IMG/VR virus record: IMGVR_UViG_3300038424_000856 | DNA: 64,000 bases | Origin: an uncultured virus (IMG/VR IMGVR_UViG_3300038424_000856) | Taxonomy: Duplodnaviria; Heunggongvirae; Uroviricota; Caudoviricetes | Strand: one strand, 5' to 3' | In this document: one piece after another, positions 1 through 7,845 of the stretch | Layout of the letters: each line of letters opens with the position of its first letter | Position numbering within the stretch: the first letter of the stretch is position 1 | Program-made: the position numbers and the translations under genes | Notes under the pieces: generated by a model | The model's input: the letters and a program-made list of their open reading frames with translations, nothing else | The model's database searches: none | What the model was told of the DNA's origin: nothing

Positions 1-870
1 GTGATTAAATTAGTCAATATATTGAAAGAAATAGAAAGTAAAGAGCAACTTAAAAAACTTGCATATTCTTGGCAAAAACCTGATGGAACTTTTATTCCTG
101 TAAAACGCGAACATGGTTTGGATGCTTTAAAACATGTTGGTGGTGACCCGAAAGATGATAATGTTGTTATATTGTGGAAAAGAGGATGGCAAAGAATATT
201 TTATTATGGTACTGACCTTAATGTTCATAATGAATTTTATCAACCAAATGATAAACAGAAAGTTAGATTAATTGAATTAGCAATACAACTTGGTTTTGAG
301 AAAGTGGAATGGGATGGTGGTGATAAAGGTGATAAAATTCTTTGGTCGGTTCATGATGTTTTGGAAGAATCTATTCAAAATTTATCCAGAACAAAGCGTT
401 TAATTCCTTTAATAAAACTTGCCAGACAATATAATACATTTGAGAATTTTTATAACGATTATCAATTTAAAAATTATCATGGAATTTATTGGCATTTAAC
501 CAATAATCCAAATTTTCGAATAGACCCCAAGCATTCTCCATCAGACCTTTCTTCATTGGCTATTGGTGGTTCTGGAGAACCCGGATTAACGCTGAGTACA
601 GATTTGGGCAATTGGTATTCTATTTTTAAGAAATCCAGAAAATATGCTGCTCAAATAGATTTATCAGATTTAAAACCGAATGTGGATTATAGGGATACTA
701 CACGGCAATTCGGTCACGAAATATATGTTTTTAAACCAGAAAAAGTAAGAGTGGTAAAAGTATATCCTATAAAGAATGCCATGGCCATAAATTTAAGAGA
801 CTACAAAAAAGTTTTACCACAATCTATAGATGAATTAAAAAAGTTGTATTATTTAGCTAAACAGGGATAG
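1..870 (+). CDS. Two-domain putative virion-internal protein; C-terminal domain ADP-ribosyltransferase-like
   Basis: N-terminal MIKLVNILKE motif and a VLEE junction; C-domain has WHLT...GLTLSTD...HEI, resembling the ART H-S/T-E layout. The start lies at the window edge. Confidence 0.5.
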   Translation: MIKLVNILKEIESKEQLKKLAYSWQKPDGTFIPVKREHGLDALKHVGGDPKDDNVVILWKRGWQRIFYYGTDLNVHNEFYQPNDKQKVRLIELAIQLGFEKVEWDGGDKGDKILWSVHDVLEESIQNLSRTKRLIPLIKLARQYNTFENFYNDYQFKNYHGIYWHLTNNPNFRIDPKHSPSDLSSLAIGGSGEPGLTLSTDLGNWYSIFKKSRKYAAQIDLSDLKPNVDYRDTTRQFGHEIYVFKPEKVRVVKVYPIKNAMAINLRDYKKVLPQSIDELKKLYYLAKQG

Positions 871-880
871 ACATTCCTTG

Positions 881-948
881 GTTATGTTGGTGTAATCCGG
901 TAGCACGCCCGTTTAGGGAGGTTACGTTCAAATCGTAAGTGTTATGAT
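881..948 (+). pseudogene. Degenerate tRNA-like element with a stunted anticodon arm
   Basis: D arm GTGT-AATCCGGTA-GCAC and T arm TTACG-TTCAAAT-CGTAA; anticodon arm only CCC-GTTTA-GGG; weak acceptor stem; no CCA. Confidence 0.5.
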
Positions 949-1010
949 GAGCTCTTGCTCGAATGGAATCGGCTCGACGGAGCATTAGTGAAATCCCCTG
1001 ATAGAAATAG

Positions 1011-1119
1011 AGAGATAGACGAAAATCCGAAGATGGAGGTTCAATTCCTCCCTGCCCCTCTGGGGCGGTGGTGCAAATGGTTAGCATGTTGGACGCCCGG
1101 AACGACTGTGAAATCCTCT
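1011..1119 (+). ncRNA. Circularly permuted tRNA-like RNA (YrlA-type Y RNA candidate)
   Basis: Order is TCCGA(1026-30), T arm GGAGG-TTCAATT-CCTCC(1035-51), acceptor CTGCCCC-tct-GGGGCGG closed by a loop (1052-68), D arm GTGC-AAATGGTTA-GCAT, then TTGGA(1089-93) pairing with TCCGA. Confidence 0.75.
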
Positions 1120-1131
1120 TTAATTTCTTAA

Positions 1132-1160
1132 TTGACATAAATGCTTTAATGGTGTATAAT
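1132..1160 (+). promoter_or_regulatory. Sigma70-type early promoter
   Basis: TTGACA-N17-TATAAT, perfect consensus; ATG at 1167. Confidence 0.9.
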
Positions 1161-1166
1161 ATCAAT

Positions 1167-1448
1167 ATGAAAGTTATATTGCCGGTTAAAGAAATACCTG
1201 TTGGTTCTGTTGTAACAAAATTGAATGGGCAAAAGAAATATCAAGTAAGAGATAGAATTACTATTTATGATGAAGTGAAAAATTCATCAAGAGATATAAC
1301 ATTGGAAATGAATACAAGAGTTTTATGGTCTGTGGATTTGCCTATGTCGGTCAATATAATTTCAGGAGATACTGAAATGATATGGGATGCAGATTATAAT
1401 GCTCTTCAATCATATCTTTATGAAAAATATGAATTAGACCAAAAATAA
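1167..1448 (+). CDS. Hypothetical protein
   Basis: ORF 1068..1448 trimmed to the ATG after the promoter (MKVILPVKE...). Confidence 0.75.
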   Translation: MKVILPVKEIPVGSVVTKLNGQKKYQVRDRITIYDEVKNSSRDITLEMNTRVLWSVDLPMSVNIISGDTEMIWDADYNALQSYLYEKYELDQK

Positions 1449-1454
1449 TATTAG

Positions 1455-1531
1455 GGGGTGGTAGCTTAGCCGGATAAAGCGTCTGCCTGTCACGCAGAAG
1501 ACCGGGGGTTCGAGTCCCCTTCATCCCGCCA
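1455..1531 (+). tRNA. tRNA-Asp(GTC)
   Basis: Cloverleaf GGGGTGG/TCATCCC; anticodon arm TCTGC-CTGTCAC-GCAGA; G73-CCA. Confidence 0.95.
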
Positions 1532-1538
1532 ATTTAAT

Positions 1539-1613
1539 TCCCGCATGGTGTAGTGGTTTGCACGGTGGTCTTTGGAACCATAAGTGACGGCTCGAAACCG
1601 TAGGCGGGAGCCA
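1539..1613 (+). tRNA. tRNA-Gln(TTG)
   Basis: Anticodon arm GTGGT-CTTTGGA-ACCAT; T1-A72; G73-CCA; atypical T loop CTCGAAA. Confidence 0.85.
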
Positions 1614-1617
1614 TTTT

Positions 1618-1800
1618 ATGATAAGAATATTAAAAGTAAAATTGTTTTTGGGTTCGACCTTGGAAGAAATAGAAACAAAAATTTCTGATTGGTTATCCAA
1701 AGAAAAAATTTGTGTTGGAAATTATATGGATATTAAATTATCTAAATTGAGTGATGTTTATCAATTAATTCTTGTTTATGCTGAATTAATACAGGAGTAA
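1618..1800 (+). CDS. Hypothetical protein
   Basis: 60 aa ORF starting 4 nt after the tRNA CCA. Confidence 0.65.
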   Translation: MIRILKVKLFLGSTLEEIETKISDWLSKEKICVGNYMDIKLSKLSDVYQLILVYAELIQE

Positions 1801-1804
1801 AGTT

Positions 1805-2053
1805 ATGATGCAAGTAATAAGATGTGAAACTTGTGGTGGCGATACAATACCTTTGGGCGGTATTAGTGTTGATTTAACCCTAAATAAAAGTGAGTTTTGT
1901 AATCACTGTTACCGAACTAAAACAGACAAACAAGAACATTTCTTTTGTTCATTGCTTTGTTTTCATGAATATATGTTGAAGCTTGTTAATGGTGAAACAG
2001 AATTGAAATGGAAAGAGAGATTTCCACCCATTGCTATAGAAGTTAAAACTTAA
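1805..2053 (+). CDS. Small zinc-finger protein
   Basis: CETC, CNHC and FFCSLLC motifs; GGAG upstream. Confidence 0.7.
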   Translation: MMQVIRCETCGGDTIPLGGISVDLTLNKSEFCNHCYRTKTDKQEHFFCSLLCFHEYMLKLVNGETELKWKERFPPIAIEVKT

Positions 2054-2058
2054 TTTAT

Positions 2059-2132
2059 TGATGCGTGGTGTAATGTAGCGCCCCTGCCCTTGAAGCAGAA
2101 AGGTGTAAGTTCAAGTCTTACCGCATCAGCCA
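2059..2132 (+). tRNA. tRNA-Gln(TTG), second copy with C33
   Basis: TGATGCG/CGCATCA acceptor; loop CCTTGAA; T arm GTAAG-TTCAAGT-CTTAC; G73-CCA. Confidence 0.85.
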
Positions 2133-2138
2133 ATCTAC

Positions 2139-2312
2139 ATGAAATACGAAATACATACAAATATATTGTGGTTAGATGGAGTTCCAGCATTTCTTTTTTT
2201 ACCTAATGGAGAAAAAGACCCAATGACGCCGACAGGATGGAATTGGTATTGTAGTCATAAAGAAGAAATTGATAAATGGATTGAAAAACATTTCAAAAAA
2301 TTGCCAAAATAA
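2139..2312 (+). CDS. Hypothetical protein (57 aa, MKYEIHTNILWLDG...)
   Basis: ATG-TAA ORF read by hand, below the track cutoff, starting 6 nt after the tRNA CCA. Confidence 0.6.
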   Translation: MKYEIHTNILWLDGVPAFLFLPNGEKDPMTPTGWNWYCSHKEEIDKWIEKHFKKLPK

Positions 2313-2316
2313 TGAT

Positions 2317-2496
2317 ATGTGTGAACAAATTAAAGATAATTTTAACAAATTAAAATCACAATTTGTAAAATATCATCCATTTATGGAAATTGTTTCTGCT
2401 GAAGATATGATTGGACTAATTGGAAAATCTGAACAATTTGTGATAGAACAAATGAATAGATGGAAAATGACATATTATGGATGCTATGAAATTTAA
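2317..2496 (+). CDS. Hypothetical protein
   Basis: ORF 2269..2496 trimmed to the ATG after the previous stop. Confidence 0.6.
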   Translation: MCEQIKDNFNKLKSQFVKYHPFMEIVSAEDMIGLIGKSEQFVIEQMNRWKMTYYGCYEI

Positions 2497-2659
2497 GTGT
2501 AAATGTCCAAATTGTGGAACATTACGTGACCTTGAAGATTATTTGGTGAAACTTATACAAAGAAAGTATGTTAAAGGACCAACCAGAATTGGATTAGATT
2601 GTTGGTATTGCAATTTTTCATTTTGGGTAGCAGAGAAAGATTTAATAAAATCAGTATGA
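2477..2659 (+). CDS. Small zinc-ribbon protein
   Basis: CPNC...CWYC. Confidence 0.65.
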   Translation: MDAMKFKCKCPNCGTLRDLEDYLVKLIQRKYVKGPTRIGLDCWYCNFSFWVAEKDLIKSV

Positions 2660-2830
2660 TATGAAGTAAAAACCACATGGCCAACATTAAAAGGTAGATT
2701 AAGTCAACCATTAACAACGGAAGAAGAAGCATTACTTCAGTTAGAACAAATCGGTGGAGTAACTTTTTCAGAAAAGGCCATTAAGAAATTAAAGAAAATT
2801 AAAGAACGTCGATGTGATAAATTAAGAAAT

Positions 2831-2904
2831 GCCAGCATGATGTAACGGTAGCCTGCCAAGCCTGTACCTTGGACGTGAGGGTTCGATTCCTTCTGCTGGC
2901 TCCA
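2831..2904 (+). tRNA. tRNA-Thr(TGT) with C33
   Basis: GCCAGCA/TGCTGGC acceptor; CCAAG-CCTGTAC-CTTGG anticodon arm; T73-CCA. Confidence 0.85.
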
Positions 2905-2913
2905 AAAAAATTT

Positions 2914-3339
2914 ATGAAAAATATTTTAGTTTTTTGTTTAATGTTTTTAACAGCTATATCAATAGCTTGTTCATCTACTCTTACTATATACTATGGTGGT
3001 ATGCCATCAACCAATATGATAGATAGTATTAAAGTTTATTATGGCTCACAATTAAAGTCTTATACAAATTCTATTTCATTTCCAGTAAATACTTTAATAT
3101 ACATTACTAATGCTCCATTTAATGGATATAATCCAATATACTGCCGGGGTGAATATATGCCTTTTTATACTAAATTGCCAATCTCTGGCTTGATAAGTGG
3201 ACAACCATTTTATTATAAAATGAGTTATATATGGAAAGGTGGAAGTGAAGTATTAATGTGGGAATCGATGTGTGCATCTACAGTCCCAACTAATGATGTA
3301 GTACTTTTTCCACCAACCAATTTGCGAATAGTTGATTAA
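2914..3339 (+). CDS. Secreted fibronectin type III-like protein
   Basis: Signal peptide MKNILVFCLMFLTAISIAC; IKVYYG..YTN..ISGL..GQ.FY; C-terminal PPTNLRIV. Confidence 0.65.
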   Translation: MKNILVFCLMFLTAISIACSSTLTIYYGGMPSTNMIDSIKVYYGSQLKSYTNSISFPVNTLIYITNAPFNGYNPIYCRGEYMPFYTKLPISGLISGQPFYYKMSYIWKGGSEVLMWESMCASTVPTNDVVLFPPTNLRIVD

Positions 3340-3346
3340 ATAGTTT

Positions 3347-3769
3347 ATGAAAAAAATATTGATTACTTGTCTAATATGTCTATCAACATTGTTGGTTAAT
3401 TCAGCAATGGTAACTATTCATTTTATGACGGGATATAGTTTATCGCCCGTTAACCTTAAAATTTATTATGGTTCACAATTACAGACATATACAAATTATA
3501 TTATAGCATCTTTAAGTGCTAATAATATTGTTACTACAACTTATGCAGCCTATGATCAGGTGCAATGCAAAAGCGGAATCTGGAGTGCTCCTCATGTGGA
3601 TATTCCTATAGATGGTTTGATTTTAGGTCAACAATTTTTTGATGGCATTACTTTAATAAATTCTAATAGCGTTGAGTCTCCATTTTTATCTCAAGCGGTT
3701 TGCGGATTTACTGTTACTAATAATATAGACCAACCTCTTTCTCCAAATGGTTTGCGAATATCAAATTAG
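3347..3769 (+). CDS. Secreted fibronectin type III-like protein (paralog of 2914..3339)
   Basis: Signal peptide; KIYYGSQL..YTN, IDGL..GQ, VES.F, C-terminal PNGLRI. Confidence 0.65.
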   Translation: MKKILITCLICLSTLLVNSAMVTIHFMTGYSLSPVNLKIYYGSQLQTYTNYIIASLSANNIVTTTYAAYDQVQCKSGIWSAPHVDIPIDGLILGQQFFDGITLINSNSVESPFLSQAVCGFTVTNNIDQPLSPNGLRISN

Positions 3770-3815
3770 TTTGTTGCCATTTTAACTGTTTTTGATATAT
3801 TTATAGATAGTTTAT

Positions 3816-3907
3816 GGAAGTCAGGTAGATGTTGGTTTGCTGCGCCAGTCTTGAAAACTGGACCGGAATAAAATCCGGCAGGGGTTCGATTCCCTTGGCT
3901 TCCGCCA
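3816..3907 (+). tRNA. tRNA-Ser(TGA)
   Basis: CCAGT-CTTGAAA-ACTGG; long variable arm CCGGA..TCCGG; G73-CCA. Confidence 0.95.
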
Positions 3908-3911
3908 TTTT

Positions 3912-4003
3912 GGAAGTGTGGCCGAGAGGCTGATGGCGCAAGTTTGCTAAACTTGTGACCCTCTAACGGGGGTCCGTGGGTTCGAATCCCACCGCTTCCG
4001 CCA
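3912..4003 (+). tRNA. tRNA-Ser(GCT)
   Basis: CAAGT-TTGCTAA-ACTTG; long variable arm; G73-CCA. Confidence 0.95.
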
Positions 4004-4138
4004 ATTTATGAAAAATAAAAAGAAGCAAAAAAAACAGAAGCCGGTGGTAAAAGAACTTACAGTAAAAGGAACATTAGCTGCTTTTAAAGTGATTGTGGAT
4101 AATTTTACGCCAGCAGGTTATACGAGGATTTCTTGATT

Positions 4139-4312
4139 ATGAAAAATATAAAAAAATTATGGATTGAAAATATCAAAAAAGTGGCTCGTAAAAAATATAA
4201 GTTTTTAGAATCGGGTATTAATAATACCGATTGGGATATTTTTTGGGAAAGTTATGGTATTGATGGACTTTCACCGGAAGAAGCATTGAAAGAAGATTTT
4301 TCTAATACTTAA
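4139..4312 (+). CDS. Hypothetical protein (57 aa)
   Basis: Hand-read ORF MKNIKKLWIE...WESYGIDGLSPEEALKEDFSNT. Confidence 0.6.
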   Translation: MKNIKKLWIENIKKVARKKYKFLESGINNTDWDIFWESYGIDGLSPEEALKEDFSNT

Positions 4313-4385
4313 TATACGATAGCTTAATTTATTGGAAAAAGAAAGATGGTAAAATAAATTATCATTAAAAAATGAAAGAAAAATT

Positions 4386-4490
4386 ATGAATATGATATTG
4401 ACACCAATACTTGGTAGTACTATCTATATAGGAAGTGGAGTAGGTTTGGTTCTTTTGATAGTGGTTTTAATTTTAGTATTTAGACGTTAA
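4386..4490 (+). CDS. Small single-pass membrane peptide (34 aa)
   Basis: MNMILTPILGSTIYIGSGVGLVLLIVVLILVFRR. Confidence 0.55.
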   Translation: MNMILTPILGSTIYIGSGVGLVLLIVVLILVFRR

Positions 4491-4495
4491 GATAT

Positions 4496-4514
4496 GGTCG
4501 CTTAGTTTATTGGT
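4496..4514 (+). repeat. 19-nt direct repeat of the tRNA-Val(CAC) 5' end
   Basis: GGTCGCTTAGTTTATTGGT identical at 4496-4514 and 4684-4702. Confidence 0.9.
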
Positions 4515-4536
4515 GGAAAAAGTTGCCATCAATTTT

Positions 4537-4683
4537 ATGAATGATAAAACAAAAAAATTATCTGAAGATGTAAATGTTGTAAAAAATAATATTTCATTGG
4601 ATTATTTTGAAAAACTTAGTAAAATTAAAAATTTATTACTAACATATTTTTACGGAGATATATCCATTTTTGAAGAAAAATAA
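4537..4683 (+). CDS. Hypothetical protein (48 aa)
   Basis: Hand-read ORF whose TAA abuts the tRNA-Val start. Confidence 0.45.
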   Translation: MNDKTKKLSEDVNVVKNNISLDYFEKLSKIKNLLLTYFYGDISIFEEK

Positions 4684-4757
4684 GGTCGCTTAGTTTATTG
4701 GTAGAATAAAATCCTCACACGATTAAGAGATAGGTTCGATTCCTGTAGTGACCACCA
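4684..4757 (+). tRNA. tRNA-Val(CAC)
   Basis: GGTCGCT/AGTGACC acceptor; AATC-CTCACAC-GATT; A73-CCA. Confidence 0.9.
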
Positions 4758-4763
4758 ATTTAT

Positions 4764-4816
4764 GCCAGATAGCCCTGCAGGCAAATTCGTTTCATGAGCG
4801 AATTGTTCTGGCACCA
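4764..4816 (+). ncRNA. 53-nt T-armless mini-tRNA-like element with a CAT loop and ACCA end
   Basis: GCCAGA/TCTGGC-A-CCA; hairpin GCC-CTGCA-GGC; hairpin AATTCGT-TTCATGA-GCGAATT. Confidence 0.65.
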
Positions 4817-4823
4817 GTTTAAG

Positions 4824-4967
4824 TTTGTTAGAAAGTAGTGTACAGATACGATAAATAAATTGCACAGTTTAGTAGTAGCAACTATAAGGGTCTAATATGT
4901 TAAAGTTTTAGACACGAATTAAAACAAGAGATGGTGGAGAATCGGGATTCCGTCAGTTTCTAACAAA
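4824..4967 (+). ncRNA. Unnamed multi-hairpin RNA A
   Basis: Perfect 11-bp terminal helix TTTGTTAGAAA/TTTCTAACAAA enclosing about four hairpins; no ORF. Confidence 0.6.
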
Positions 4968-4975
4968 TAATGATT

Positions 4976-5076
4976 TGAGATACACGCAGCAATAAAACTT
5001 TGTCGGGCAACCGACTCCACGTTGTAGAGAACAACATTAAAAGGTTCCTCAGAAAAGAGTGTAAATCGGTATCTCG
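4976..5076 (+). ncRNA. Unnamed multi-hairpin RNA B (CAGCAA type)
   Basis: Terminal helix GAGATAC/GTATCTC, ACGCAGCAA, hairpins GTCGG-GCAA-CCGAC and GTTGT-AGAGA-ACAAC. Confidence 0.65.
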
Positions 5077-5086
5077 TTAATTTAAT

Positions 5087-5162
5087 CGGAGTGTCGCCTA
5101 GTGGCTATGGCGCTTGCTTTGGGAGCAAGATATCGGGCGTTCGAGTCGCCCCACTCCGACCA
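5087..5162 (+). tRNA. tRNA-Pro(TGG)
   Basis: CGGAGTG/CACTCCG; CTTGC-TTTGGGA-GCAAG; A73-CCA. Confidence 0.95.
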
Positions 5163-5204
5163 TTTATTGTATTTAATATGGATGGAGAATAAAACAATTT
5201 TAAT

Positions 5205-5284
5205 GTGAGTATGGCACCAGCGGCAACGGCGCTTCCCTTACACGGAAGTTTTTATCGCAGGTTCGAGTCCTGCTACTCACACCA
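5205..5284 (+). tRNA. tRNA-Val(TAC)
   Basis: GTGAGTA/TACTCAC; CTTCC-CTTACAC-GGAAG; A73-CCA. Confidence 0.92.
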
Positions 5285-5289
5285 ATTTT

Positions 5290-5472
5290 ATGAAAAATAG
5301 GATGTTAACATTATATAATTTTATTGATGAATTATCAAAAAAGGTTGAAAATAAAATCAAGAAAAATAAAATGTTAGGAGAAATATTATATTACAAATAT
5401 GATAATAAACTTCTCATTTATATTTTGATTAGTAGTATAGTGATTTCTGTTATTTTAACATTTTTGTCATGA
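5290..5472 (+). CDS. Small protein with a C-terminal transmembrane helix
   Basis: LLIYILISSIVISVILTFLS tail. Confidence 0.6.
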   Translation: MKNRMLTLYNFIDELSKKVENKIKKNKMLGEILYYKYDNKLLIYILISSIVISVILTFLS

Positions 5473-5636
5473 TTACTAAGTTTGAATGTAAAGATAAAAA
5501 ACGCTTTTCTACAAAGGAACAGGCAAATGAACATATTTATACATTAGTGATGGAATCTCTTGGTGGTGTAATTGAACTAAGGCCATATAAATGCAAGCAT
5601 TGCAAGGGGTACCACTTAACCAGTAAAGTAAAATGA
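5469..5636 (+). CDS. Small zinc-binding phage protein (55 aa)
   Basis: Hand-read ORF MITKFECKDKKRF...RPYKCKHCKGYHLTSKVK; ATGA overlaps with both neighbours. Confidence 0.7.
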   Translation: MITKFECKDKKRFSTKEQANEHIYTLVMESLGGVIELRPYKCKHCKGYHLTSKVK

Positions 5637-5833
5637 ATACTGAAACAGGACAATTAATAAATTTTGACGATCTTAAAAAATTACCACTTGAAGAACAAGT
5701 AAAATACACCGAAATTAAACGTGATTTGACCAAATTGGAAGAATTTAACAAACAAATCAGAATGTATTCCCCGTGCGGTTGTGGAAGTGGTAAAAAATTC
5801 AAATTTTGTTGTTACAAAAAACCAGTAAGATAA
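5633..5833 (+). CDS. SEC-C motif protein
   Basis: C-terminal SPCGCGSGKKFKFCC. Confidence 0.8.
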   Translation: MNTETGQLINFDDLKKLPLEEQVKYTEIKRDLTKLEEFNKQIRMYSPCGCGSGKKFKFCCYKKPVR

Positions 5834-5834
5834 A

Positions 5835-6104
5835 ATGATTTATATTTGTTCACAATGCATAGAACAGCAAAAATTAGGACCTTATACTATTAAGGCTCAA
5901 GCAGCAGGTGTTCAATTTAAACAAGGATTGTGTTTGCGTCATTATGTGAAAGCTGCACTTGATAGAGGTAGAAGTAAAAAGCAAATTGAAATAGGTATAA
6001 GGGCAAATGCCTCAACCGGGTTTAAACCACCTGTAGATTTGAAAAAATATCCAAGTTTGATTAAACAATATAAACAAGGAATATTTAAAGAACCAGAAGT
6101 GTAA
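5835..6104 (+). CDS. Hypothetical zinc-binding protein
   Basis: CSQC...GLCLRH. Confidence 0.65.
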   Translation: MIYICSQCIEQQKLGPYTIKAQAAGVQFKQGLCLRHYVKAALDRGRSKKQIEIGIRANASTGFKPPVDLKKYPSLIKQYKQGIFKEPEV

Positions 6105-6107
6105 TTT

Positions 6108-6196
6108 GCTACCATGCTGGAATTGGCATACAGACCAGCCTGAGAAGTTGGGGTCCGTAATTGGACTTGTGGGTTCGAATCCCTCTGGTAGCACCA
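6108..6196 (+). tRNA. tRNA-Leu(GAG)
   Basis: GCTACCA/TGGTAGC; CCAGC-CTGAGAA-GTTGG; long variable arm; A73-CCA. Confidence 0.95.
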
Positions 6197-6210
6197 ATTT
6201 TATATAGTGA

Positions 6211-6252
6211 ATTGTGTCAATAAAATTTTGTTATTGACACGATTTTTGTTTT
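6211..6252 (+). terminator. Probable intrinsic terminator
   Basis: TTGTGTCAATAA/TTATTGACACGA hairpin followed by TTTTTGTTTT. Confidence 0.6.
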
Positions 6253-6257
6253 AAGGC

Positions 6258-6290
6258 TTGACATTTTTATGTATTTGATTTATATTTATA
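6258..6290 (+). promoter_or_regulatory. Sigma70 promoter overlapping the putative late motif, upstream of RNase P RNA
   Basis: TTGACA-N17-TATATT; ATATTTATA at 6282-6290. Confidence 0.75.
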
Positions 6291-6313
6291 GATAAAGAGT
6301 TCTTTGAAATTTT

Positions 6314-6599
6314 TTTGTGACATAAGTGACCTTACGCTAACCTAAATGTGTTAGAGGAAGTTCGCGGCATCACAGCAGATGATTGGGAGAATCAGTAAAT
6401 GTTGCAACCGAGCCGTAGCCAGAGAAAAACTGGTAGTGAGCCTTGAAAGGGGTTAATCGGTATGATTCGTTAATACCACAAATTAGATGCAAGTGCAAAT
6501 AGGGACAAGAGTAGTGCTGCTCGTTATAAAGTCTGGGTAATAGCACGCTTAGAGAAATGTAAGGATAAAACAGAACCGCGGCTATGTCTGTGTCATAAA
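6314..6599 (+). ncRNA. rnpB: RNase P RNA (compact, phage-encoded)
   Basis: P1 TTTGTGACATA/TGTGTCATAAA; P2 CCTTAC/GTAAGG; P4 strands GAGGAAGTTCGCGG (6354) and AACAGAACCGCGGCTAT (6569); GCAAGTGCAAATAGGG (6489) and TAGAGAAATG resemble conserved bacterial segments. Confidence 0.88.
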
Positions 6600-6606
6600 T
6601 TTTATT

Positions 6607-6682
6607 GGGGTCTTAGCTCAATTGGTAGAGCGTCTCAATGGCATTGAGAAGGTCAGGGGTTCGAATCCCCTAGGCTCCACCA
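6607..6682 (+). tRNA. tRNA-Ala(GGC)
   Basis: G3:U70; TCTCA-ATGGCAT-TGAGA; A73-CCA. Confidence 0.96.
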
Positions 6683-6686
6683 GTTT

Positions 6687-6842
6687 TAGATGTGGTAACA
6701 GCAATTAAATATTGTTAAAACAAAAAACCCCAAAAGGGAATAAATCCTGCGAAACAGGTCGTAGCGGTGGCTACGCTAAAAACGCTCAACAGGGGTAAGT
6801 TGTAAAAAGAGCTTCGGAGATAACCGTAAATTCCGCATCTAG
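6687..6842 (+). ncRNA. Unnamed multi-hairpin RNA C (CAGCAA type)
   Basis: Terminal helix TAGATGTGG/CCGCATCTA, TAACAGCAA, hairpins CCTG-CGAAA-CAGG, CGTAGC-GGTG-GCTACG, CAAC..GTTG, CGG-AGATAA-CCG. Confidence 0.65.
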
Positions 6843-6899
6843 TATATTCTTTCTCTTCGTGAGAAAGATGAAGTTTTCCTCTCGGAAGGGAAACTTTAT

Positions 6900-6973
6900 G
6901 GGGTCATCGTTCAACGGGAGGACATCTCATTCGCAATGAGAAAATCCGGGTTCGATTCCCAGTGGCTCCACCA
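6900..6973 (+). tRNA. tRNA-Ala(CGC)
   Basis: G3:U70; TCTCA-TTCGCAA-TGAGA; A73-CCA. Confidence 0.93.
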
Positions 6974-6994
6974 ATTTAGAGTATTACAAAATAT

Positions 6995-7068
6995 TGATTA
7001 CTGATGTAATGGTAGCATGACGCTCTCTGAAAGCGTTCGTCCATGTTCGAGTCATGGGTAATCAGCCA
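6995..7068 (+). tRNA. tRNA-Gln(CTG)
   Basis: TGATTAC/GTAATCA; ACGCT-CTCTGAA-AGCGT; G73-CCA. Confidence 0.95.
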
Positions 7069-7073
7069 ATTTT

Positions 7074-7238
7074 AACAACGGATACCTACAGTTAAATCCT
7101 GACGTATTTGATACTCAGGACAATCACGGGTAATAAGTAGGTAATTAAAGTTTACCGAAGACCGTGTTAGGAGGCCACAATCGAAAGCAGTGGCTTTGCC
7201 GTTGGACGAGATTCCAACAGGTTATTAAATCCGTTGTT
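7074..7238 (+). ncRNA. Unnamed multi-hairpin RNA D
   Basis: Perfect 10-bp terminal helix AACAACGGAT/ATCCGTTGTT enclosing TCCTGA/TCAGGA, CACGG/CCGTG, GGCCAC/GTGGCT and GTTGGA/TCCAAC stems. Confidence 0.7.
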
Positions 7239-7241
7239 TTA

Positions 7242-7333
7242 GGATGTGTGGCAGAGTGGCTTATAGCGCTTGCTTGGAGAGCAAGAGGTCGGTGAAAATC
7301 GGCCCGGAGGTTCAAATCCTTCCACATCCGCCA
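7242..7333 (+). tRNA. tRNA-Ser(GGA)
   Basis: CTTGC-TTGGAGA-GCAAG; long variable arm; G73-CCA. Confidence 0.95.
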
Positions 7334-7356
7334 ATTTATTTGAAATTATAAATAAA

Positions 7357-7587
7357 ATGTTTTTAAAATGGGTAAAATTTTTATTTGCTAAAAAATCAAA
7401 AAACCCTGAAAAGGTAGTAATTGGTTTTGTATTACCAGATGGCAAAAAATTTAATATCGAAGCAATAAAACCATCAACAAATCCATTTGCTTGTAAAATT
7501 CATCCAGATTATATTCCTGTAAGTCCGCCAACAAATAATTGTAATAGTTGTTGGGAATATTATAGTAAAGGCCGTAGTAAATGGTAA
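7357..7587 (+). CDS. Hypothetical zinc-binding protein
   Basis: ORF 7270..7587 trimmed past the tRNA; CKIHP..CNSCW. Confidence 0.6.
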   Translation: MFLKWVKFLFAKKSKNPEKVVIGFVLPDGKKFNIEAIKPSTNPFACKIHPDYIPVSPPTNNCNSCWEYYSKGRSKW

Positions 7588-7588
7588 T

Positions 7589-7756
7589 ATGAATCAGAGT
7601 TATTATGACGATGATTACCCTGAAACAAATAGGGATAAGACTTTAGTGCCACGAAAAGTTTCTCTTTGGTGTGGTTGTGATAGAGTCTTAATAAGACCGT
7701 GGAAAAAGTGCCCCATTTGTGGCAGACGAAATGGCAGAAAACGATTTAAACGGTAA
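7589..7756 (+). CDS. Small zinc-ribbon protein (55 aa)
   Basis: Hand-read MNQSYYDDDYPE...WCGCD...KCPICG; the stop lies inside the first 5 nt of tRNA-Ser(CGA). Confidence 0.65.
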   Translation: MNQSYYDDDYPETNRDKTLVPRKVSLWCGCDRVLIRPWKKCPICGRRNGRKRFKR

Positions 7757-7845
7757 GTTGGCCGAGTGGACTAAGGCGCCAGTTTCGAAAACTGGAGGTC
7801 GGCAAAAATGCTGACCCGTAGGTTCAAATCCTACACTTACCGCCA
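7752..7845 (+). tRNA. tRNA-Ser(CGA)
   Basis: CCAGT-TTCGAAA-ACTGG; long variable arm; G73-CCA. Confidence 0.95.

Follow-up and report, generated by a model that had tools for sequence, protein, structure and literature searches.

Background

Published phage Y RNAs carry the motif GNCGAA or CGAA and are encoded beside TROVE proteins, according to the available portions of PMC4201824 and PMC12135203, and the string CAGCAA has 0 occurrences in the searchable supplement of Chen et al. 2014 (PMC4201824). Phage Bas63 encodes a Ro60-like protein, gp130, upstream of its transfer RNAs (tRNAs) that counters Ppl, and the accessible text of the preprint on this protein (PhageMaP, bioRxiv 10.1101/2024.10.10.617714) guesses that some annotated tRNA genes are Y RNAs. 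Diverged RNase P forms in the candidate phyla radiation and an inactive camelpox RNase P RNA candidate appear in the available parts of PMC8172020 and PMC3001073, respectively. The present work concerns a tRNA island at positions 871 to 7,845 of a 64,000-nucleotide (nt) stretch of an uncultured Caudoviricetes virus (IMG/VR IMGVR_UViG_3300038424_000856). This stretch, called the window, corresponds to bases 287252-351251 of the 365,299-base virus record, which is rated complete; positions are those of the window unless marked as genome positions. The island includes a compact RNase P RNA and two RNAs, C and D, that belong to a CAGCAA-handle family strongly tied by genomic association to a Ro60-fold DUF2828 protein. 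The new element is the set of candidate RNA partners for DUF2828; the likeness of this protein to Ro is already present in some annotations. The type I (CAGCAA) family is apparently undescribed.

The Ro60-fold protein and the CAGCAA RNAs

The virus encodes a DUF2828/DUF7788 protein at genome 136404-137963 that aligns with phage TROVE proteins in hhalign (97.3% probability over 370 columns). The structural model of this protein (predicted local distance difference test score 94) contains a helical-repeat ring together with a von Willebrand factor A (vWA) fold, with a template modelling (TM) score of 0.58 to 1yvr. A Foldseek search of this model against the Protein Data Bank identified 13 matches at E ≤ 0.001, all of which are Ro60/TROVE proteins; searches with the protein sequence against the same database provided nothing, and the fold search alone succeeded. 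Across 44 records, DUF2828 was found in seven and TROVE in nine, and no record held both. Relatives of DUF2828 are present in 692 GenBank phage records, some of them already annotated as Ro-like, and the relative in Felixounavirus sits immediately upstream of the tRNAs. Genus and position together suggest that Bas63 gp130 is itself a DUF2828 protein. Judged by their titles, none of the papers found to mention 'DUF2828' deals with RNA.

RNAs C and D (Table 1) share a terminal stem beginning with AGAU, the CAGCAA motif directly behind it and a 3' GUAAAU, and RNAs with this arrangement are referred to as type I. For D, an alignment of six sequences was 96% paired with two-sided change at 7/25 pairs (0/500 shuffles), including the H-type pseudoknot module. 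The genome of the virus contains 15 matches to the type I pattern, eight of which are convincing: two in the leader of the DUF2828 gene, four in the tRNA region upstream of the island, and C and D themselves. Two relatives (L220 and L221) each have three type I units in the leader of the DUF2828 gene. A strict descriptor identified 90 units in 53/79 viral DUF2828 loci, with 86 on the strand of the gene and 35 carrying a T arm, compared with 2-7 units in shuffled sequence; 545 kb of sequence from RNase P loci yielded 2. A relaxed descriptor provided 212 matches in 71/79 DUF2828 loci (12-18 in shuffles), and its 4 matches in nine TROVE loci are at background level (0-5 in shuffles).

Units of this type also occur in laboratory phages. 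The Felixounavirus member Escherichia phage tootiki (L348:8713-9481) has four unannotated CAGCAA units between its tRNAs, one with a permuted tRNA body, and regions like this one are present in 315 GenBank records. A cultured cyanophage encodes two type I units beside its DUF2828 gene. The bodies of the units comprise empty loops, T arms, permuted tRNAs and pseudoknot chains. Since many carry permuted tRNA bodies, the type I units look like a second class of Y RNA. Of the two traits of a Y RNA in the broad sense, genomic association with a Ro60-fold protein is observed for the type I family, and binding by that protein would be the other. The best Rfam match for the units in five loci was YrlA, at 37.9 bits against a cut-off of 69, and literature searches found no description of the CAGCAA motif, though a prior one may exist.

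The Y-RNA connection drawn in the preliminary description of the island, which had been made from the letters of the DNA alone, is supported by a route other than the one proposed: TROVE is missing, a Ro60-fold DUF2828 protein is present with C and D as its associated RNAs, and the closing motif of the permuted unit is another one. The four closed-end RNAs of that description (B, C, D and E) each have at least one homolog, and covariation was counted for D and E.

The compact RNase P RNA

The RNase P RNA of the island has its P4 helix at 6358-6367/6576-6583 with a bulged U, and the P15 GGU at 6536-6538. Rfam RF00010 matches it over 6318-6599 with 44.1 bits (E 2.2e-11); as the gathering score is 100, default settings miss it. 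This match and the covarying catalytic core support the identity originally proposed for the RNA. An insertion of approximately 70 nt in P12 is present in the window and missing from the relative L023.

Three pattern scans of viral contigs provided 7, 18 and 62 loci, which after deduplication gave 63 distinct cores. The upper P4 was perfect in 50/63, and 10/63 were dropped for a poor P4; removal of L044 (chance) and L087 (a near copy of L048) from the 53 that passed left an alignment of 51 viral sequences. Within this alignment 97.5% of the cells of the catalytic half are paired and 13/18 pairs show two-sided change (0/500 shuffles). P4, with its bulged U and conserved regions CR-I and CR-V, is paired in 99.5% of cells with compensatory change at 4/8 pairs; the rows were selected on P4 pairing, and the unbiased test is provided by P2 (94.6% paired, 5/6 pairs compensatory) and P5 (97.5% paired, 4/4 pairs compensatory). 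The P6 pseudoknot is also supported (mean best run 5.6 vs 4.3, maximum 4.7; 49/51 sequences usable), the CR-IV columns are conserved, and the L15 GGU is invariant. In bacterial RNase P, the GGU of L15 pairs with the CCA of the tRNA. CR-II and CR-III were found together in 0/51 viral RNAs compared with 33/38 cellular hits of the same pattern, the motifs being matched by regular expressions and the cellular hits being mostly archaeal.

The viral cores are 157-231 nt in length. tRNAs are encoded in 40/50 of the homolog loci, with four or more in 36, and an RnpA gene in 0/25 viral records examined. One pattern was also run against cellular genomes, where the phage form appeared in just two contigs, one of 546 kb and one of 3 kb with a tRNA array. 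The former (L119, from a metagenome-assembled genome of Bacteriovoracaceae) and L120 place phage-type RNase P RNAs within bacterial metagenome-assembled genomes and are probably mis-binned phage contigs. Seven of the viral loci (L053, L058, L063, L074, L076, L083 and L088) form a subgroup in which the start of the S-domain is longer and more bacterial-looking. Literature searches brought up no account of an RNase P RNA from a phage, and the accessible text of PMC7824862 has 0 mentions of RNase P.

The tandem tRNA-mimic pair

The first two RNAs of the island form a tandem pair, here called type II, in which GAUAGAC/GUGAAAUCC, with a bulged C, closes each unit. The RNA at 862-999 had been taken as a separate remnant and is instead the first unit of this pair; its body consists of a D arm, a stunted anticodon arm and a T arm, and has no Rfam match. 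The second unit, correctly recognized at the outset as a permuted tRNA-like RNA, has a T arm (1035-1051), a 7-base pair (bp) acceptor stem (1052-1068) closed by a 3-nt loop, and a D arm. In five sequences, 96.7% of its cells are paired and 11/24 pairs show two-sided change (0/500 shuffles). A scan for type II provided 13 hits, from which 4 chance hits and 4 copies of the window were dropped; the pair recurs in L158, L169, L174 and L176, and single units in L157 and L173. BLAST of 871-1125 against 50 records gave short matches only.

The permuted T-acceptor-D module by which YrlA is recognized is present in the second unit and in many type I relatives, and is not found in C or D. The YrlA model did not match the type II units. 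The YrlA motif GNCGAAN0-1G was also not recovered, as GACGAA in the second unit is followed by AA and is not kept in its homologs, and C and D carry CAGCAA. YrlA is further expected within <4 kb of a TROVE gene; the virus has no PF05731 gene, and the Ro60-fold gene is >150 kb away. Both of the complete genomes with type II that were examined (G000 and G053; 2/2) have DUF2828. In the available text of PMC4201824, a 7-bp acceptor stem let RNase P cut the YrlA of M. smegmatis.

Other RNAs of the island

The armless mini-tRNA stands as originally recognized, and begins 6 nt past the CCA of a tRNA-Val. A metagenome scan found three loci with two variants, and the sole other variant is that of L023. 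The homolog of RNA B (G012:26940-27090) lies behind a tRNA-Ser and has the same two loops with a different closing stem. These two invariant loops are purine-rich and could, speculatively, form a double T-loop that replaces the missing RNase P module. RNA E is 93.2% paired across eight distinct sequences with two-sided change at 14/28 pairs (0/500 shuffles), after 2 chance hits and 4 copies of the window were left out of the 13 hits of its scan. All eight sequences adjoin tRNA-Gln(CUG) and/or tRNA-Ser(GGA). The tRNA remnants are likewise real, being represented by a repeated 5' half of tRNA-Val. In L023 (4975-4800, minus strand) an extra closed RNA of approximately 170 nt lies between tRNA-Ala and D; the window has none. 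No relevant Rfam match at E ≤ 5 was found for B to E, the mini-tRNA or the type II pair. Likeness to hammerhead, twister, pistol, theta, SAM-I, preQ1 and T-box RNAs was considered and rejected, with no Rfam support.

Every RNA named in the preliminary description exists in the sequence, and for most of them homologs show covariation in the stems. Rows identical to the window were excluded in every case. That description had tied its proposal to covariation in related phages, which was seen for the RNase P RNA, the permuted unit, D and E.

Table 1. Positions in the window of the RNAs and transcription signals of the island
Feature	Position	Strand	Remarks
Type II unit 1, normal-order tRNA-like body with 3' hairpin	862..999	+	Closing helix GGAUAGAC / GUGAAAUCC
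Type II unit 2, tRNA mimic in circularly permuted order	1010..1119	+	Same closing helix, bulged C
Sigma70 promoter-like site, 12/12 consensus	1132..1160	+	Opens new unit after type II pair; consensus match only
15 tRNA genes (Asp, Gln x3, Thr, Ser x4, Val x2, Pro, Leu, Ala x2)	1455..7845	+	Interspersed small open reading frames without Pfam match
tRNA remnant, copy of tRNA-Val(CAC) 5' half	~4489..4521	+	blastn 88% over 33 nt
Mini-tRNA, 53 nt; acceptor stem with ACCA, 3-bp hairpin, long hairpin	4764..4816	+	Folding z -3.2
RNA B, closed-end, two conserved loops	4823..4968	+	z -2.1; one homolog in G012
RNA C, type I (CAGCAA) Y-like, hairpin/A-tract body	4977..5075	+	Homologs L023, L080; paralog at genome 267162
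Terminator-like hairpin (6209-6245), then 11/12 promoter-like site (6258-6286)	6209..6286	+	Before RNase P RNA
Compact RNase P RNA	6318..6595	+	P2, P4, P5, P6 pseudoknot, P15, P16; no CR-II/CR-III motifs
RNA D, type I (CAGCAA) Y-like, body of linked hairpin + A-tract modules	6686..6842	+	At least one module H-type pseudoknot
Twin hairpins between D and tRNA-Ala	6849..6895	+	96% identity in L023
RNA E, multi-helix junction, AGUA/GAA internal loop	7074..7237	+	Between tRNA-Gln(CUG) and tRNA-Ser(GGA)

Organization and genome setting

A recount of the tRNAs again gave 15, every one on the plus strand. Tight spacing between RNAs was also borne out: within the two clusters of the island, and leaving aside the two kb-scale gaps between clusters, neighbouring RNAs are separated by 3-11 nt at 11/12 junctions and by 21 nt at one. 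Junctions of this length fit release by tRNA processing. The single polycistronic transcript envisaged in the preliminary description was not supported, as near-consensus promoters lie inside the island (1132 and 6258) together with a terminator-like hairpin (6209). These signals point to several transcription units rather than one, and on predicted signals of this kind we argue for an island made from several such units. The promoter scan returned 45 sites compared with 32 by chance, and only strong sites were counted. The leader ahead of the RNase P RNA in L023 resembles that of the window.

The virus is a jumbo phage of T4-like type, with genes for the major capsid protein, portal, terminase and sheath. 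The island does not stand alone and forms the 3' end of a tRNA region of ~35 kb that starts ~27 kb upstream and also holds a transfer-messenger RNA (tmRNA; Rfam RF00023, 103.6 bits) and a GOLLD RNA (RF02032, 165.5 bits). A genome-wide scan of 377 open reading frames, which excluded short ones outside the tRNA region, identified a CCA-adding enzyme, three RNA ligases, a PNKP-like kinase-phosphatase, RlaP, PTH2 and RF-1. The CCA-adding enzyme is one of the companion genes that the preliminary description had pointed to; the others, Ro60/TROVE (PF05731), RtcB and RnpA, had 0 matches each in this genome, and the Ro60-fold DUF2828 protein was found instead. A regular expression for the RNR motif of RnpA gave a single match that runs across stops.

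Further features were observed in the genome. At genome ~266814-266960 (L014:13672-13817) a degenerate tRNA whose anticodon may be UUA comes after a tRNA with a CUA anticodon, and ARAGORN at relaxed settings calls a UCA tRNA at genome 282604-282719. Suppressor-like RNAs are therefore present for all three stops, in a genome whose coding density under table 11 is 91%. A second mini-tRNA, with a 7-bp acceptor, one hairpin, a T arm and CCA, directly follows the degenerate tRNA (genome 266964, L014:13822-13876). The GOLLD RNA (L014:14846-15311) has an embedded tRNA-like segment, with ~600 nt more of structured sequence upstream of the Rfam match. Elsewhere in the virus (L001:4441-5310; L004 and L007; L010:22-1296) are an Acb1-like 2H phosphoesterase, three DruA-like genes, a PARP and an NAD salvage cluster. 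The island itself contains two tandem paralogs (2914-3339 and 3347-3769) that appear to be secreted, are 87% identical over 47 nt and have no Pfam match.

Interpretation and alternatives

The island is read, with a probability of roughly 0.55, as a tRNA supply joined to an RNA-handling cassette that has at least two separable ribonucleoprotein (RNP) systems and several transcription units. In the first system, the compact RNase P RNA would borrow the RnpA of the host and, with the phage CCA-adding enzyme, handle the tightly packed precursors, its cutting freeing both the tRNAs and the RNAs between them. With the core and the spacing directly observed, it is probable that these three components would process the precursors, the RNA being active and host RnpA its partner. 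In the second system, the terminal stem and CAGCAA would form a handle bound by the DUF2828 protein, and the variable body would be what the DUF2828 ring is tethered to or gated by. The observed fold and genomic association make it similarly probable that C, D and the six further units are Y-RNA equivalents to which DUF2828 binds.

A number of observations weigh against this reading. For the RNase P system, the absence of CR-II plus CR-III from 51/51 RNAs may cripple the ribozyme, and 10/50 homolog loci have no tRNA within the available stretch. For the DUF2828 system, C and D lie ~156 kb from the DUF2828 gene, and none of the 140 units examined around DUF2828 genes has a body of their type. 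No type I unit was found in the mycobacteriophage Clautastrophe or the Listeria phage LP-048, two of the four cultured phages tested, the relaxed descriptor identifies no unit in 8/79 DUF2828 loci, and the complete genome G020 holds only one doubtful unit. The complete genome G008, which has TROVE and no DUF2828, contains a variant unit whose handle reads TAGCAA and whose body is a permuted tRNA (L314, G008:257310); the other four complete TROVE genomes have chance-like descriptor matches only. The descriptor was written after units near DUF2828 had been seen, and the 79 loci include close relatives, so that the counts overstate independent events. The type II motif is absent from the same 79 scan loci. 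Finally, the Ppl result, the one experimental link to tRNA-targeting defence, is indirect, and the accessible text of the PhageMaP preprint reports that gp130 alone, borne on a plasmid, rescued T7 on Ppl, which indicates that phage RNAs were not needed in that test.

In one alternative, which builds on the preliminary description, the mimics and closed RNAs are a decoy toolkit that sequesters or blocks anticodon nucleases, polynucleotide phosphorylase (PNPase) or tRNA-sensing defences, with the RNase P RNA perhaps a decoy for RnpA or pre-tRNA. In its favour, the tRNA-like bodies of type II and of many type I units offer no usable anticodon, elbow motifs are missing from the RNase P RNA, and the Ro60 of a Thermus phage, together with its Y RNAs, dampens the PNPase of the host in the part available of PMC12135203. 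The RNase P RNA nevertheless keeps all features of the catalytic core with compensatory change, which exceeds what a decoy needs; sealed acceptor stems without anticodon loops would presumably be poor bait for anticodon nucleases, and no defence target was identified. This alternative is considered unlikely.

The CAGCAA stem could also, instead of marking free Y RNAs, be a cis operator or a processing or stability signal through which DUF2828 controls its own mRNA and the tRNA precursors. Short empty units lie directly in the leader of the DUF2828 gene, 38/79 loci have a unit inside -700..+2100 of the gene start, and 82/140 units near DUF2828 genes are ≤80 nt without a T arm, all as a cis element would have it. 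Yet 25/140 units have a T arm followed by a D-like arm, as in YrlA, tRNAs frame units so that processing would free them, and published phage Y RNAs are likewise located upstream of the Ro60 gene (PMC12135203, as far as the text is accessible); a cis role is rated as quite improbable. A housekeeping role alone, in which the RNAs would let a slow-growing host translate more and the mimics would be decaying tRNA duplicates that persist as spacers, would suit the true tRNA remnants, the single other variant of the mini-tRNA and the mimicry of permutation by tandem tRNAs noted in the available text of PMC4201824, but is very unlikely in light of the compensatory changes that divergent phages show in E, in D and in the permuted unit, the conserved non-tRNA closing motifs and the strong tie to one protein family.

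Within the two-RNP reading, B, E, the mini-tRNA and the type II pair are conserved cargo, most likely either further mimics of the tRNA elbow or protein handles. The cassette may serve to shield or mend translation RNAs that the host attacks, together with the RNA ligases and the kinase-phosphatase, a suggestion that is tentative and falls somewhat short of even odds. A more far-reaching version is doubtful, namely that a second, parallel phage Ro RNP with a CAGCAA handle and interchangeable bodies, freed from tRNA operons by an elbow-less RNase P of the phage, would counter RNA-attacking defences. In its boldest form, which is speculative, B or E would act in trans as the specificity module that RNase P lacks.

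These results name candidate RNA partners for a Ro60-shaped protein whose relatives are widespread in GenBank phage records, including one genus, Felixounavirus, with an experimentally shown counter-defence Ro60-like gene. As the candidate RNAs lie in unannotated gaps of laboratory phages, their binding and function are directly testable. The association also suggests that cases of 'Y RNA without Ro60' may have a partner overlooked by TROVE searches. A natural phage RNase P RNA without elbow-reading motifs provides a test of the role for which the specificity domain is required.

Comparison with known systems

The type I units share with YrlA and with bacterial and phage Y RNAs (RF02553; phiLo Yrl1/2) a terminal stem beside a short motif and, often, a permuted T-acceptor-D body. 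Like Y RNAs, they are encoded on the strand of the Ro60-fold gene, often upstream of it and in tandem copies. They differ from YrlA in the motif, which is CAGCAA in type I and GAUAGAC/GUGAAAUCC in type II instead of GNCGAAN0-1G or CGAA, in the candidate partner, which is DUF2828/DUF7788 and not a Pfam TROVE protein, and in number, position and body, as a genome can have eight units at a distance from the gene, with empty loops and pseudoknot chains among their bodies. The permuted type II unit has a YrlA-like topology and the 7-bp acceptor stem, and falls outside YrlA on motif, model and distance. The DUF2828 protein has the ring of helical repeats and vWA domain of Ro60/Rsr and of the phage 'Ro-like RNA binding protein', and differs from the solved Ro60s in having an identity of 12-14%. 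The PhageMaP guess concerns annotated tRNA genes, whereas the candidates here occupy unannotated gaps between tRNAs.

The tRNA region resembles the phage tRNA arrays of Al-Shayeb 2020 (PMC7162821), which in the text available also combine a large tRNA set with a CCA enzyme, tmRNA and GOLLD. It differs from them in the RNase P RNA: the main text of that paper has 0 mentions of RNase P, and the GenBank huge-phage records do contain the RNA, unannotated. The phage RNA shares P1-P5, the bulged-U P4, CR-I/IV/V, P6, the P15 GGU and P16 with class A (RF00010) and archaeal (RF00373) RNase P RNAs, and the letters of its P4 resemble the archaeal hits. It is distinguished from both by being phage-borne and compact, without the CR-II/CR-III pair, and with no protein subunit gene found.

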